Part shown: one piece after another, positions 49,353 through 53,933 of the stretch
Layout: every line of letters starts with the position of its first letter
Numbering within the stretch: the stretch's first letter is position 1
From: Escherichia coli
GTDB taxonomy: Bacteria > Pseudomonadota > Gammaproteobacteria > Enterobacterales > Enterobacteriaceae
Length of the DNA stretch: 64,000 nucleotides
Strand: one strand, 5' to 3'
NCBI RefSeq assembly: GCF_048403405.1
Contig: NZ_CP183129.1
Notes under the pieces: model-generated
Database searches by the model: none
What the model was told of the DNA's origin: nothing
Seen by the model: the letters and a program-made list of their open reading frames with translations, nothing else
Program-made: the position numbers and the translations under genes

Positions 49353-50645
49353 TTACCTGTTTTCCCATAATCTCAGCATCGCTTTGTGCTCGTCTGTCAG
49401 CACAATCTGCGGGCGTCTGGCTCGAATATAGCTAATCGCTTCATTAACGGTTTTACAGTGTCCGTAACATAACAACCATGCCGCCACCACCAGCGCACTG
49501 CGCGATAATCCCAATGCACAATGGACCAGAACGCTGCCTTGCTCTTCGCGTAATGTTTCCAGCATCGCCACGGCCTGTCGGAGCTCCCCCTCTTCCGGAA
49601 CCACCAGATCCAGCATCGGTACACAAAAATAGAGTCGATCTTTTGTGGCTCGTCCGCGAGGGAATTCAAAGGTGACGTCCAGAACCGCATTCTGTGCCGG
49701 AATATGTTGTGGAAACGCCCCTAAATAAACACCAGCCGTAATTTTGCTCACCGGCTCCAGGCGAAGGCAAAACCAACGCATAGACAGCCACATCCCGATG
49801 CGCCATGGCAATGTCAGCCAGTAAACGGCAGGCGGGAGTTTCCCTTGACTATCTTTACCTGTTGTTATCGCGCCAAGCCCACCGTACCCACGGCCAATAA
49901 TGAGTAGCGATAATACTGGCCAACATAACCAGACTGACCACCATAACTGAAGCATTATCATTAGCTCCATCAACACAATGCACGCGCCCGCGCCTACGAC
50001 ATATGGCAGTGCTATTTTGATTCGACGTTGATCAGGTTTCTGATAATTCCAACGACGGTCGACGGGCACCATCCAGTCAATTAACATACCTACCGCCAGC
50101 CCTGTGATGACATCAATAAAATGATGCTGCCAGGTCGTCAGCGTCGAAATGGCGATGAGTAAAAACCATCCGCCGCAGACTTTACGCCACCTCACAGCCA
50201 GATGCTGACGAAAGTGACGCCAAAGTAGCCAGCAGAGAATAATATGCAGCGAAGGAGACTGGTTATAAGGCAGATCAAACAATTCAAGTTGCGAAAATAA
50301 CCATCCTGTTACCCCACTCACTTCAGGACGGATAAAACTAAACTTCAGCGGATAGAGAAAAAAACCGCAGCAGGCCATTACCGTTGCCAGAATAAGCCGG
50401 TGGACCAGTCGGCGCTGCTCAAATGTCGAGCTACAAACGAACAGCGAAAATCCATATAAAAGATCCAGACTCCAGTAAGGAAAAATAGTCCAGGGAAGAA
50501 AAGGGATCGCCGTTTCCCAACCGAATACCTGACTGGGGATATCATGGTTGTTAAGATCCTGAGTCGCGGTGAACTGATTAAGAAATCCATATGTGAAGAA
50601 GAAAAACGGGGCCAGCAACAATAACCAGCCAGCTCCTTGTAGCAA
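49353..50645 (-). CDS. ynbD: membrane protein YnbD with C-terminal dual-specificity phosphatase domain
   Basis: Track ORF 49353..50744; start provisionally TTG at 50643-50645 (14 nt after the ynbC stop) to give 430 aa; active-site [10 protein letters not shown]. Confidence 0.75.
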
Positions 50646-50658
50646 TACGTTCCGGCGT

Positions 50659-52416
50659 TCAGTTGTCACGACGCACCGCCATCGAAACCGTAAAAATGCC
50701 CCACTCATCAATCCGTTGGGTGCATTTATCAAATCCGGCATCATGCACGAGCGAATCCATCTCCCCTTGAGAACGCACGCGCATTACCCACGGTTTACCA
50801 TCTTTATGACTGGTTAATACCCCGGCAATCAGCTCCAGTTGTGGGTGCCACGGCTGCCCGGTGTAGATGAGAATGCCACCCGGCTCGATGGCATTGGCAA
50901 GACCTGCGAGTGAGTTTTTTACCTGCTCATTTTCGGGATAAAGCTCATACAGGCCAGAGACAATCGCCAGCGTAGGCCGCGGAGTTAACGTGCTGAGTTC
51001 TGCCGGATTAAACGCATCGCCCTGTTCAAAACGCGCCCGACCAGACATTCCCCGTTGGGCAATCATCTCTTGCCCTTGTGCAACATTTACCTCACTGTAA
51101 TCACGTAACAAAATATCGCTTACGGCAGGCTCGTTTACCAGCGCATCCAGTACATAGCGCCCATGCCCTGCGGCAATGTCAACCACGCGGACGGCTAAAC
51201 CTTTGGCGTGGAGATCGGCAACGGCTTGTTTAATCAGCATTTGTAAATGGGTTTTGCGCTGGCGAATACCGCGCCAGCCAACACTGTTCAGGTAGATTTT
51301 GTCAATTAAGCGCCCGAATGCGTTACTGCCTTGCGGTTGATTTTGATAGACATAATCCAGGGAACTGCCTGAATCAAAGCCGGTGCTCATTCCGAGATGC
51401 AGGCCCGCAGAGTGCGCCCCGAACAATTTCATCGCCTTTCGCATAAAGCGATACGCCAAATCAACCGGCGATAATGGCACGGGTCCACCTGAAAGGAGCC
51501 GCCAGCGATCCGCTGATGGTCCAGTGCGGTCTTCATGCTGATAATCAAATTTTTGCGACTTGTTAGCATATAAACGACTAATAAAGCTTTGCATTTTTTC
51601 AAATGCCTGCGCCCTGTTCTCTTCACCCAACGTGTCGTGATAAAAGCCTGGCAGCAGATGCAGCTCTTTCAGAGGGCTACGTAATCTCTGATAAAAATCA
51701 ATCTGCGGTTGGCGATGCACCACATAGTCATCGCCTGATATCAGAAGTTGCGTGGGGAGTGTAATCGCCGCCGCATCGCTAACAATACGTTCAGACGTTT
51801 TATAGAGATCGAGCAAGATATTGACGGCAATCGCCCGTGTGATCAGCGGATCATTATTGAAACTCGCCACCCGTTGCCGATCGTGGGTCAGATAACGCCC
51901 TTTCACATAGGAATTAATAAAAAACAGACCACGCAGACGATGCCATAACGCCAGCCCAGGACGTGCCAGCGGCACATACAATTTAACCTTAAAGGCCGGA
52001 GATGCCAGCACCAGTCCACGAATAGCAGGCGCATAATCATGAACCCATGTGGCAACCAGCACTGCGCCAACGCTTTGCGCGATCACAACCACCTCTTCCA
52101 GTCCAACCTGGCTGTCGCTGGCAGCAAAACGGACAAATTCATCGACATCCCGCACTGAACGCGCAAGAGATGGGCTATAACCACGCGGCCCCGAACTTTT
52201 TCCATGCCCTCGGGCATCCCAGGCATAAAAAGCAGTATCTGGCATCGCCAGTTCATCAACGATATGTTGTAGACGACCAGAATGTTCATGACCGCGATGA
52301 AATAAGACGATGACCTTTTTCGCCCCGGGCTGTAAAGCGGGCCAGTGCCGATAAAACAACGCTGTATTATCACTGGTGATAAAAAAATGTTCCCCAGGGA
52401 TGCGTGAATTTTCCAT
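50659..52416 (-). CDS. ynbC: fused alpha/beta hydrolase and SAM-methyltransferase-like protein YnbC
   Basis: 585 aa; N-terminal hydrolase fold and C-terminal methyltransferase-like region. Confidence 0.85.
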
Positions 52417-52431
52417 TTTCTCTATTTTCCT

Positions 52432-53328
52432 TCAGTAACAGCAGTAGCGAATAAAATAAAAAAATACCGGAGCGGTGAAAATTAATGAGTCAATCCTGTC
52501 AAGGAGTCCGCCATGTCCTGGTAATAGTTTTCCACTATCTTTAACACCAATATCTCGTTTGATGGCTGACATCACTACATCGCCGCAAAAACCACTAATA
52601 CCAATTAACAAACCCGTTAATAATGCCTGTAATGTATTTACCGGTGTCAGTAACGGTCCAATAATCAGTGACACAATCATGGTAGTGATTACGCCCCCCA
52701 CCAGACCTTCCAGCGTTTTTCCCGGGCTGACTTTGGGGACCACTTTTCTTCTGCCGCAGGATTTCCCCCATAAATACTGTGCAATATCGTTTGACTCGGT
52801 TAATGCCAAAAGAAATAACACCAGTAACGCCTCGCCCTGGATATTTATGGTTGGCAACATTAACAACCAGGCGGCATGACTCAAGGCGAAAACGATCATT
52901 ATCCAGCCCCAAAAAATGGCGCTCACAGTATGCAGAAAACCGGAGGGGTCCCCCACAAAAACTTGCCCGGTGGCTAATATCAGAAACCCAGCCAAAGGTA
53001 TAAATAACAGATACAGCTCAAAGCAATTAAAACCGATAAACAAATAGTTAAGAGGAATACCCCAATATAACCAACGCGGAAAATGTACAGATATAAGCGT
53101 ACAATATTCTTTCAATGCCAGAAAACTTATCAGCGCAAAAAACGTCAACGTCATCCAGCGTGGACCTGAAATCACCATTGAAAAACAAATGACGATGCCC
53201 CACCAGGTACGAATACGTAATGTAACTTCATCCCCTTTTCTCTCCGGTAACCGCCATATCAGAAAACGGTTTATCAGCGTTGCTAAAATTAACAACGCGA
53301 AAAGTGTTGCCAGAGATTTTTCCAGCAT
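52432..53328 (-). CDS. ynbB: CDP-diglyceride synthetase-like membrane protein YnbB
   Basis: 298 aa polytopic protein resembling phosphatidate cytidylyltransferase (CdsA) C-terminus. Confidence 0.85.
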   Translation of the reverse strand: MLEKSLATLFALLILATLINRFLIWRLPERKGDEVTLRIRTWWGIVICFSMVISGPRWMTLTFFALISFLALKEYCTLISVHFPRWLYWGIPLNYLFIGFNCFELYLLFIPLAGFLILATGQVFVGDPSGFLHTVSAIFWGWIMIVFALSHAAWLLMLPTINIQGEALLVLFLLALTESNDIAQYLWGKSCGRRKVVPKVSPGKTLEGLVGGVITTMIVSLIIGPLLTPVNTLQALLTGLLIGISGFCGDVVMSAIKRDIGVKDSGKLLPGHGGLLDRIDSLIFTAPVFFYFIRYCCY

Positions 53329-53933
53329 TATCTTTCAGCACTCATCAGGAGCACACTCCGACAACGATTAATCGCAGTCCAGATAAGCAGAATTGAAGCA
53401 ATGCCCCATAAAAGATTATTCCATTGCATCCACTGTGGATAAATGGCAACGGCCAGCCCCCACAACCCAAATATTAACGCACGATCGCTTTTGCCGAATG
53501 GACCGGCATAACTGCGAATACCGTTAATCGTCTGCGCGAGTAAACCGCAAAACTCAGTCAATATGGTGCAAAATAACATGAGTATTACGAGTGGTGCGTT
53601 TCTTTCCGGTAAAAATAAAAACGGTAAATAGAGCGCAATATCGGAAATAACATCGCCAGTTTCATTCAAAATCGCCCCCAGACGTGTTTGCTGATTGCAC
53701 TCACGCGCCAACATGCCATCCAGCGCATTGAGCGCCATACGGATAAAAAGTACGATGGGCAATAGCAAAAAGAGGATGGGTTGTGCGACCAACATCAACA
53801 GCAATCCGGTAAAAAGAGAAAGCGCCAGTGCAGTAAGAGTGATGTGATTCGCTGTAACATGGTGCTTATAAAGCCAAAACATCGTCGGTCTTAACAGCGT
53901 CTGAAAGAGCGGTTTTATCTGGTAGAGCGTCAT
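53328..53933 (-). CDS. ynbA: CDP-alcohol phosphatidyltransferase family protein YnbA
   Basis: Track ORF 53328..53939 trimmed to the MTLYQIKP.. Met (201 aa); CDP-alcohol phosphatidyltransferase D-G-x2-A-R..G..D motif (NALDGMLARECNQQTRLGAILNETGDVISD). Confidence 0.85.
   Translation of the reverse strand: MTLYQIKPLFQTLLRPTMFWLYKHHVTANHITLTALALSLFTGLLLMLVAQPILFLLLPIVLFIRMALNALDGMLARECNQQTRLGAILNETGDVISDIALYLPFLFLPERNAPLVILMLFCTILTEFCGLLAQTINGIRSYAGPFGKSDRALIFGLWGLAVAIYPQWMQWNNLLWGIASILLIWTAINRCRSVLLMSAER

Follow-up and report, generated by a model that had tools for sequence, protein, structure and literature searches.

The ynbABCD genes of Escherichia coli occupy positions 49,353 to 53,933 of the 64,000-nucleotide stretch of contig NZ_CP183129.1 (assembly GCF_048403405.1) that we analysed here, and which we refer to as the window. 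The locus is known and annotated, and the gap concerning its product is acknowledged; finding it is in itself no discovery. A preliminary description, made from the letters of the window, had read the four genes as the synthesis and modification of an unusual phospholipid, with a product that is not established. In the papers that we found, no product is given for the operon, but the biochemistry of one of its enzymes, YnbB, has been published, in connection with CDP-diacylglycerol (CDP-DAG) and with the glycolipid membrane protein integrase (MPIase). Beyond this work on YnbB and MPIase and a negative complementation result for YnbD, we found no product assignment in the literature, and a preprint on the Lipocone superfamily does not include this cassette. 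We propose, with a probability of roughly 55%, that ynbABCD is a translationally coupled and normally poorly expressed operon for an accessory, CDP-DAG-dependent phospholipid head-group pathway. The enzyme classes, the co-orientation and coupling of the genes and their conservation all favour the earlier idea of an unusual phospholipid, while the YnbB/MPIase biochemistry, the fusion in YnbD and the variant signature of YnbA complicate it.

Several described systems come close to parts of the locus. The catalytic C-terminal half of the CDP-DAG synthase CdsA, with its signature, is common to YnbB, although the N-terminal halves are unrelated. In vitro, YnbB synthesises CDP-DAG; its over-production increases the amount of MPIase, and it has been called an MPIase-dedicated CdsA paralogue (PMC6362211, PMC7018664, PMC11413397); the rise is about as large as that given by CdsA (PMC6362211). 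YnbB is unable to replace CdsA, as it does not complement a cdsA knockout and does not support bulk phospholipid synthesis (PMC6362211, PMC7018664), and making CDP-DAG without supporting bulk synthesis fits a dedicated supply role. Unlike CdsA, YnbB is dispensable, and its inheritance follows the ynb cassette, not the genes around cdsA.

A second parallel is the two-step route to inositol lipids, in which PgsA1 (6h53/6wm5) or an archaetidylinositol-phosphate (AIP) synthase is followed by a phosphatidylinositol-phosphate (PIP) phosphatase. The synthases of this route are the best sequence matches of YnbA. The ynb cassette likewise pairs a synthase with a dedicated phosphatase and has a CdsA-type enzyme to supply the donor, and this pairing fits a phosphorylated-alcohol substrate followed by dephosphorylation. 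In contrast to the inositol-lipid route, the ynb phosphatase is a cysteine-based dual-specificity phosphatase (DSP) fused to a second membrane enzyme, and no inositol-phosphate synthase gene is conserved among the neighbours of the cassette in 80 loci. E. coli is not known to make inositol phosphate de novo. The phosphatidylglycerol pathway, in which PgsA is followed by PgpA/B/C or PTPMT1, differs in that YnbA scores weakly against the pgsA model (27.5 bits against a cut-off of 109), ordinary DUSPs match the DSP domain of YnbD as well as PTPMT1 does, and YnbD fails to complement a triple pgpABC mutant (PMC7413402).

The membrane half of YnbD can be set beside the sphingomyelin synthases (SMS) and inositol-phosphorylceramide (IPC) synthases, such as human SMSr (8ijr/8ijq) and yeast AUR1 (9ivc). 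Sequence identity to these is only 12–14%, YnbD has two extra transmembrane helices and a phosphatase domain that they do not have, and its match to Pfam PAP2_3 is sub-threshold; the membrane domain of YnbD may be a transferase or a hydrolase. E. coli is not known to have a ceramide acceptor. By functional analogy only, YnbD also recalls LpxT, which moves phosphate from undecaprenyl pyrophosphate (C55-PP) to lipid A, as well as the head-group transferases EptA/B and OpgB: all would be periplasm-facing membrane enzymes with a phospholipid or polyprenyl-phosphate donor and an envelope target. LpxT is itself a PAP2 protein (PMC7413402), which means that PAP2 folds can act as transferases. Unlike these enzymes, YnbD comes with its own donor-synthesis genes.

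Operon layout and enzyme assignments

In the list of open reading frames (ORFs), ynbABCD are four genes on the same strand, running from 53933 to 49353:

53328..53933, minus strand: ynbA, 201 aa, its ATG preceded by AAGGA
52432..53328, minus strand: ynbB, 298 aa, CdsA paralogue (phosphatidate cytidylyltransferase family)
52416..50659, minus strand: ynbC, whole gene, 585 aa
51562..52416, minus strand: ynbC N-terminal domain, residues 1–285, monoacylglycerol-lipase-like alpha/beta hydrolase with triad S115-D230-H260
50659..51549, minus strand: ynbC C-terminal domain, residues 290–585 and stop, class I S-adenosylmethionine (SAM)-dependent methyltransferase, Pfam Methyltransf_20
50061..50669 (including the GTG start), minus strand: ynbD N-terminal membrane domain, residues 1–195 in the 430-aa numbering, PAP2-superfamily fold of sphingomyelin/IPC-synthase type
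49353..49751, minus strand: ynbD C-terminal domain, residues 299–430 and stop, cytoplasmic dual-specificity (Cys-based) phosphatase

The tight packing noted in the preliminary description is borne out. All four genes are co-oriented, the ynbA stop and the ynbB start share one base (TAATG), 15 nt separate ynbB from ynbC, and ynbD begins 13 nt past the ynbC stop if it starts at the TTG at 50645 (430 aa). With the alternative GTG start at 50669 the protein has 438 aa, the overlap with ynbC is 11 nt, and the sequence MTTERRNV gives the N-terminus positive charge. Both starts are in use, varying by RefSeq record, and the start of the longest ORF (ATG 50744, 463 aa) is used by none of the annotations that we compared. 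This packing is that of a translationally coupled operon. RefSeq annotates ynbA as a CDP-alcohol phosphatidyltransferase family protein, ynbB as a phosphatidate cytidylyltransferase, ynbC as a bifunctional alpha/beta hydrolase/class I SAM-dependent methyltransferase and ynbD as a phosphatase PAP2/dual-specificity phosphatase family protein. The enzyme classes given by the preliminary description were right, in that the Pfam assignments of all four proteins pass their gathering thresholds (38.8 bits for YnbA, 231.6 for YnbB, 232.7 and 504.2 for the two domains of YnbC and 96.4 for YnbD); for YnbA and YnbD, however, the class names turned out to be incomplete.

YnbA does belong to the CDP-alcohol phosphatidyltransferase family (PF01066, CDP-OH_P_transf, gathering cut-off 22, residues 27–175), but judged by its signature it is not a canonical member. 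The family signature, D1-xx-D2-G-xx-A-R-x8-G-xxx-D3-xxx-D4, contains four aspartates that are considered essential in canonical members. YnbA instead has N69-xx-D72-G-xx-A-R-E ... G86-xxx-N90-E-xx-D94-xxx-D98, in which D1 and D3 are Asn while D2, D4 and the G, A and R are unchanged. Both Asn residues, N69 and N90, occur in every one of the 46 YnbA orthologues examined, which come from several proteobacterial orders, and phosphatidylinositol-phosphate synthase (PIPS), AF2299 and CHPT1 have Asp at both columns. Such invariance argues that the Asn/Asn pair is a fixed family trait and not decay. The pair would imply a metal or substrate site with a different charge, and without two of the canonical aspartates the chemistry of YnbA may be something other than a simple transfer of the phosphatidyl group. 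Among solved structures, mycobacterial PIP synthase 6h53 comes nearest (E 1e-9; profile E 1e-12), and the nearest NCBIfam models are those of the archaetidylinositol-phosphate and PIP synthases, both far under cut-off. YnbA scores 46.6 bits against the NF045883 equivalog (cut-off 170) and 73.5 bits against NF040950 (cut-off 180), and the PIP and AIP synthases are its closest families without YnbA being a member of either. An invariant GPxGKSDRA block in the C-terminal half of the protein suggests that the substrate is a phosphorylated alcohol. We found no enzyme assay of YnbA in the literature. A role as choline phosphotransferase was ruled out: this annotation has been withdrawn from EcoCyc (PMC3781023), and the match of YnbA to CHPT1/CEPT1 is weaker than that to PIP synthases.

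YnbB (PF01148, CTP_transf_1) carries the CdsA-type signature S-x-x-K-R-x4-K-D-x5-P-G-H-G-G-x-x-D-R-x-D. The corresponding motif, SAIKRDIGVKDSGKLLPGHGGLLDRIDS, is conserved in 65 orthologues, where it takes the form SAIKRD..KD..PGHGG.LDR.DS. Against the CdsA equivalog PRK11624 it reaches 112 bits, with a cut-off of 385, over residues 162–291 only, which falls short of full-length equivalence. One E. coli record encodes a protein of 889 aa (P0001) that reads through the 15-nt spacer and joins the CdsA-family domain PF01148 to the whole of YnbC; it could be a natural fusion, or an artefact of sequencing or annotation.

YnbC, a soluble fusion protein, matches Hydrolase_4 in its N-terminal part, where it has the monoacylglycerol lipase fold and the Ser-Asp-His triad, and its C-terminal part conserves the class I SAM-methyltransferase residues D413-I-A-A-G417-H-G419, D439 and D467-A-F. 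It differs from the monoacylglycerol lipases (M. tuberculosis Rv0183, human MGLL, yeast Yju3) in being fused to a Methyltransf_20 methyltransferase and in its nucleophile motif, which is AQSVG and not GxSxG; in 7 of 35 distant homologues the nucleophile Ser is replaced. We found no characterised or informative solved relative of the methyltransferase domain by sequence, and fold listings were dominated by alpha/beta hydrolases. The gene was still described as a ‘putative hydrolase/methyltransferase’ in June 2026 (PMC13313352). Distant YnbC homologues (up to 41% identity) lie outside the cassette and are therefore uninformative on ynbABCD. In one such setting (L004/L005, 4031–9779), a homologue with 33% identity directly follows genes for a ketoacyl synthase, a MaoC dehydratase, a ketoreductase and a metal-dependent hydrolase, and no ynbA, ynbB or ynbD was found near it. 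The arrangement resembles a small fatty-acyl pathway in its own right, with a hydrolase-methyltransferase as the last enzyme, and possibly hints that the product is a methyl ester.

YnbD had been described as a membrane dual-specificity phosphatase. The DSP domain is there (DSPc, above its gathering threshold), but that description omitted the PAP2-superfamily, SMS-like domain that is fused to it, which reaches only 21.3 bits against PAP2_3, under the threshold of 27. The first ~195 residues form this PAP2-superfamily membrane domain. Its His/His/Asp triad is invariant in a 51-sequence alignment, with H134 in PSLH and H174/H175 and D178 in S-x6-H-x3-D. The phosphatase centre, C376-x5-R382-S383 together with D346, is likewise invariant in 51 orthologues, and the domain has the P-loop H/V-C-x5-R-S/T, the general-acid Asp on the D-loop and the fold of a DSP. 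An AlphaFold2 model computed from the 51-sequence alignment (pLDDT 94.4, pTM 0.90) shows eight transmembrane helices and one amphipathic helix, with the phosphatase domain at the C-terminus. Because the predicted cytoplasmic loops hold 13 Lys and Arg residues against 2 on the periplasmic ones, the triad is predicted to be periplasmic and the Cys-phosphatase cytoplasmic. On the evidence of sequence and model, then, YnbD joins two enzymes that work on either side of the membrane, a periplasm-facing PAP2-like domain and a cytoplasmic Cys-phosphatase.

The membrane domain does not carry the motifs of PAP2 lipid-phosphate phosphatases of the PgpB, LpxE and YbjG type (K-x6-R-P, P-S-G-H and S-R-x5-H-x3-D). 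In C1 there is no conserved Lys and P107 alone is invariant; C2 reads PSLH, with H134 invariant; and in C3 S167, H174 and D178 are invariant while the Arg has become Val. The phosphate-clamping C1 Lys/Arg and C3 Arg that are typical of true phosphatases are thus missing. Structurally the domain is closer to the sphingomyelin and inositol-phosphorylceramide synthases than to PAP2 phosphatases, and like the former it has a six-helix PAP2-like core in which only the His/His/Asp triad is kept, on what is predicted to be the non-cytoplasmic face. The literature lists YnbD as the fourth E. coli PAP2, with ‘no function yet ascribed’ in 2020, and in vivo complementation found it to be neither a C55-PP nor a phosphatidylglycerophosphate (PGP) phosphatase (PMC7413402). 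As YnbD does not replace these phosphatases in vivo, it is no redundant housekeeping PAP2, and the failed complementation together with the motif and fold evidence rules out that candidate role.

A six-gene cassette, reduced in E. coli

We found YnbC relatives in at least 554 of ~100,000 species genomes, using search patterns derived from a 9-sequence alignment (a 35-sequence one was too divergent). Cassettes were counted in the 80 best loci, found in 80 other species from Enterobacterales, Neisseriales, Burkholderiales, Rhodocyclales and Pseudomonas, with one Bradyrhizobium and one metagenome-assembled Acidobacteria genome. All 80 loci have ynbA, ynbC and ynbD together. The ynbD gene directly follows ynbC in 78 of them, and ynbA always precedes ynbC, being adjacent to it in 65 loci and separated from it only by ynbB and/or an acyltransferase gene in the other 15. 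Three further genes are frequent: ynbB (63 loci), a gene for a PlsC-type acyltransferase (64 loci; Pfam PF01553, 84.7 bits) and one for a small membrane protein of ~130–160 aa without a Pfam match (69 loci). With AT for the acyltransferase and sm for the small membrane protein, the gene orders were as follows:

A-C-D-sm-AT-B: 44 loci
A-B-AT-C-D-sm: 12 loci
A-C-D-sm: 9 loci
A-C-D, on short contigs: 6 loci
minor variants of order: 9 loci

The E. coli order A-B-C-D occurs in none of these 80 loci. No homologue of the acyltransferase or of the small membrane protein was found in the whole window, and Citrobacter has a 213-aa acyltransferase gene where E. coli has the 15-nt spacer between ynbB and ynbC. 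Because it is without these two genes, ynbABCD of E. coli represents a reduced version of a cassette of six genes, which other Proteobacteria commonly carry. The preliminary description had called the genes conserved, and this can be put more strongly, as conservation of the cassette is strong throughout the Beta- and Gammaproteobacteria, with E. coli holding the reduced version.

Two independent YnbA-YnbC fusion proteins, one of 807 aa (P0123, locus L002) and one of 927 aa (P0151), both keep the Asn/Asn signature. These fusions support a physical linkage of YnbC to the YnbA pathway. Comparative genomics of this kind is the strongest evidence that the ynb genes probably work together. A conserved substrate-supplying neighbour, for example an inositol-phosphate synthase, was ruled out by clustering the neighbours in the 80 loci: only the acyltransferase and the small membrane protein are conserved, and the other clusters are lineage-specific or consist of spurious high-GC ORFs.

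A few loci depart from the common forms. In one (L003, 4790–14629), a 927-aa YnbA-YnbC fusion is followed by a patatin-like phospholipase and a short-chain dehydrogenase, a CdsA-like gene and a 592-aa PAP2_3-DSP gene lie on the opposite strand, and a 2OG-Fe(II) oxygenase and an FMN-dependent dehydrogenase are encoded upstream. Citrobacter sp. Cu233 carries two diverged copies of the cassette (L008 and L016), with YnbC identities of 78% and 67%, and YnbC is 70–78% identical to that of E. coli in Vibrio fluvialis, Snodgrassella alvi and an Orbaceae bacterium (P0045/P0056, P0118 and P0095). The two diverged Citrobacter copies and the YnbC identities in these other bacteria suggest that the cassette may have been transferred horizontally among host-associated bacteria.

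Variation and expression within E. coli

The operon segment is 100% identical to that of six RefSeq E. coli chromosomes and 95–99% identical to ~4,600 others, and 4283 of 5426 complete E. coli genomes keep at least 80% of it. Comparison with the K-12-like and O157 alleles gave dN/dS values of 0.12–0.51, with 0.12–0.3 for ynbA, ynbC and ynbD. The ynb genes are therefore under purifying, though relaxed, selection within E. coli, which means that they are real genes and not chance ORFs. The catalytic residues of all the ynb enzymes are intact in this strain. Its allele is a rare one, with at least 99% identity over the operon in only 6 of the 5,426 complete genomes; the K-12-like allele is 96.6% identical. 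Five matching places for the operon were on records typed as plasmids.

Two non-coding features flank the genes:

53934..54103, minus strand: ydbD-ynbA intergenic region with the ynbA promoter, 170 nt, 38.8% GC
49306..49352, minus strand: hairpin directly 3′ of the ynbD stop codon, in the 53-nt gap before the convergent azoR

The ynbA promoter is one of ten promoters activated by BglJ-RcsB. A site centred 65–68 nt upstream of the ynbA transcription start has been mapped, and its mutation abolishes activation; bglJ itself, on whose product with RcsB the operon depends, is repressed by H-NS (PMC3950696). In the ydbD-ynbA intergenic region the RcsB half-site core wwTTCykA has a single match, TATTCTGA at 54025..54018, centred 88.5 nt upstream of the ynbA ATG, and it is here that we would place the published BglJ-RcsB site in this strain. 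A generic sigma-70 consensus scan of the same region found no promoter, with nothing above chance. Inside the ynb genes a terminator scan found 8 terminator-like sites, where 6.9 are expected from shuffled sequence. The hairpin downstream of ynbD has a perfect 11-bp stem and a folding energy of −25.1 kcal/mol as RNA (z = −5.0 against shuffles). No U-tract was found on either strand, and the terminator scan missed it; judged by its sequence and fold it may terminate transcription from both sides or stabilise 3′ ends. The GC content of the ynbA-ynbB end and the promoter region is 39–45%, while that of the window is 49%.

The upstream neighbour, ydbD, has the same orientation, and downstream lie azoR, which is convergent, and hrpA. 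The ydbD gene (54104–56416, minus strand) is annotated as a ‘DUF2773 domain-containing bactofilin’ and is AT-rich (~39–46% GC), like ynbA and ynbB. The ORF list gives it a GTG start and 770 aa, and the RefSeq coding sequence is 2,307 nt (768 aa and stop).

Proposed pathway, alternatives and significance

In the head-group pathway that we propose, YnbB would make a local pool of CDP-DAG, an activity for which the in vitro evidence is in the literature. YnbA, judged by its homology, would move the phosphatidyl group onto a phosphorylated alcohol, giving a phosphatidyl-X-phosphate, and the cytoplasmic Cys-phosphatase domain of YnbD would take off the terminal phosphate, by analogy with PgsA and its Pgp/PTPMT1 partners and with PIP synthase and PIP phosphatase. 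The lipid would then reach the outer leaflet, where the periplasm-facing, SMS/IPCS-like domain of YnbD may act on it, as its fold, triad and topology suggest; a second molecule, either a lipid or a glycan of the envelope, would accept the phospho-head group, or the head group would be cleaved. YnbC would probably remove an acyl chain and methylate a substrate of the same pathway, a linkage supported by the YnbA-YnbC fusions, and in other species the acyltransferase may also remodel acyl chains. The 1-nt overlap and 13–15-nt spacers, the co-inheritance of the genes, the fusions, the invariant centres of YnbD and the purifying selection all speak for this pathway.

Several observations weigh against it. 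Two of the four canonical catalytic/metal-binding aspartates are missing in YnbA, the DSP domain of YnbD is equally close to protein phosphatases, and the acyltransferase and small membrane protein of the cassette are missing in E. coli. The cassettes of Morganellaceae type (Xenorhabdus, Proteus, Providencia and Morganella; L021–L026 and L031) consist of ynbA, ynbC, ynbD and the small membrane protein, with no ynbB or acyltransferase gene within 10 kb, so the CdsA paralogue is optional for the cassette. Within E. coli, the operon is absent from ~15% of complete genomes and in a further ~6% the best match covers less than 80% of it; the copies sampled include a 292-nt remnant, one with an internal deletion and one with an IS1 insertion, one full-coverage copy is interrupted by IS3, and selection is relaxed, with dN/dS reaching 0.51 in ynbB. 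The operon has never been reported to give a lipid product, though E. coli lipidomes are well studied, and the published role of YnbB in MPIase synthesis is a different function for at least one of the genes (PMC6362211, PMC7018664, PMC11413397).

A bolder form of the proposal, which we consider somewhat unlikely, is that the cassette is a complete and previously undescribed system of donor lipid and transferase. YnbA, with its Asn/Asn site, and the fused Cys-phosphatase would build a minor phospholipid on the cytoplasmic face, the SMS/IPCS-like domain of YnbD would, in the periplasmic leaflet, attach the phospho-head group of this lipid to another envelope molecule (a lipid, lipopolysaccharide, enterobacterial common antigen (ECA), osmoregulated periplasmic glucan or lipoprotein), and YnbC and the PlsC-like acyltransferase would tune acylation and methylation. 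In a sub-variant, the Asn/Asn site of YnbA would let a phosphate oxygen be the nucleophile, giving a pyrophosphate-linked lipid such as GlcNAc-PP-DAG, and YnbA would be the missing dedicated enzyme behind the YnbB-MPIase observations.

Alternatively, the operon may be a decaying relic: the ancestral six-gene pathway worked, but the E. coli copy, with two genes lost, is silenced and without a product, and is kept by weak selection or by the moonlighting of a single gene such as ynbB. The loss of the two genes, a gene order seen in none of the other species, the common occurrence of natural IS3/IS1 insertions, internal deletions and complete absence, and the dependence on BglJ-RcsB with bglJ under H-NS repression all point this way, and the low GC content would be typical of silenced, acquired DNA. 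Set against this are the intact catalytic residues in this strain, the low dN/dS of ynbA, ynbC and ynbD, the retention of most of the operon in 4283 genomes, the polyphosphate accumulation caused by a ynbC transposon insertion (PMC2435150) and the listing of ynbD as a candidate fitness gene in systemic infection by uropathogenic E. coli (PMC3855560). As a full explanation we hold decay to be improbable. For E. coli specifically it may well be true, and it is compatible with the head-group pathway as the function of the full cassette elsewhere.

Another explanation has the operon, or at least YnbB, serving MPIase, by a route from phosphatidic acid through enzyme-bound CDP-DAG to GlcNAc-PP-DAG, with YnbB as a cold-inducible backup of CdsA and neighbours that assist or are unrelated. 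Besides the effect of YnbB over-production on MPIase, with Tam41p as a competitor for phosphatidic acid, export defects become worse if ynbB is lost (PMC6362211), a cdsA knockout is rescued by YnbB together with Tam41p (PMC7018664), ynbB is reportedly cold-induced together with cdsA and has been proposed as a backup (PMC11413397; bioRxiv 10.64898/2026.06.05.730299), and transposon insertions in ynbB are disfavoured in a strain that has ECA linked to phosphatidylglycerol (ECA-PG) only (PMC8609368). However, MPIase and growth are normal in a ynbB knockout (PMC6362211), and the MPIase effect is given by any CdsA-type enzyme, including yeast Cds1p and human CDS1 (PMC6362211, PMC7018664), so that it may come from the CdsA fold in general and not reflect what YnbB natively does. 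MPIase is described as essential, yet about 15% of complete E. coli genomes lack the operon, and the company that ynbB keeps with ynbA, ynbC and ynbD in 63 of the 80 loci, always in one of two fixed gene orders, suggests that it works within the cassette. The backup role accounts for YnbB alone, we found no paper that tests ynbA, ynbC or ynbD for MPIase, and we regard this explanation of the operon as improbable.

Lipid turnover or scavenging, in which exogenous or damaged lipids would be degraded or recycled by a monoacylglycerol or lysophospholipid hydrolase, two phosphatases and re-activation as CDP-DAG, with methylation as a detoxifying or export step, is equally hard to credit: YnbD does have two phosphatase-type centres, the L003 variant adds a patatin-like phospholipase and the L004/L005 homologues beside fatty-acid-synthase-like genes suggest that a hydrolase-methyltransferase can act alone on acyl esters, but three of the enzymes (the CdsA paralogue, the CDP-alcohol transferase and the PlsC-type acyltransferase) are biosynthetic, the hydrolase-methyltransferase is linked to the synthase by fixed co-inheritance and by the YnbA-YnbC fusions, and no transporter or regulator for external lipid is conserved beside the cassette in the 80 loci.

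Three features are apparently unreported: the Asn/Asn signature of YnbA, the combination of an SMS/IPCS-like periplasmic domain with a cytoplasmic phosphatase in YnbD, and the ancestral six-gene cassette with its YnbA-YnbC fusions. Residues can now be named for testing the proposed pathway (N69, N90 and D94 of YnbA; H134, H174 and C376 of YnbD; S115 and D413 of YnbC), with BglJ-RcsB as the inducer, and the fuller six-gene versions, for example those of Citrobacter and Pseudomonas, are likelier than the E. coli remnant to yield a detectable lipid. If the head-group pathway is real, the MPIase literature would be reframed, as YnbB would natively work with YnbA, YnbC and YnbD, and the effect of its over-production on MPIase may be a side activity. 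YnbD would provide a bacterial counterpart of the eukaryotic sphingomyelin and IPC synthases, and YnbA would stand for a CDP-alcohol transferase subfamily with altered chemistry at its metal site. The phospholipid metabolism of E. coli K-12 is regarded as essentially complete, yet it includes a four-gene lipid operon without a product, and this operon would be the local form of a head-group pathway that is widespread in Proteobacteria, in at least 554 species.

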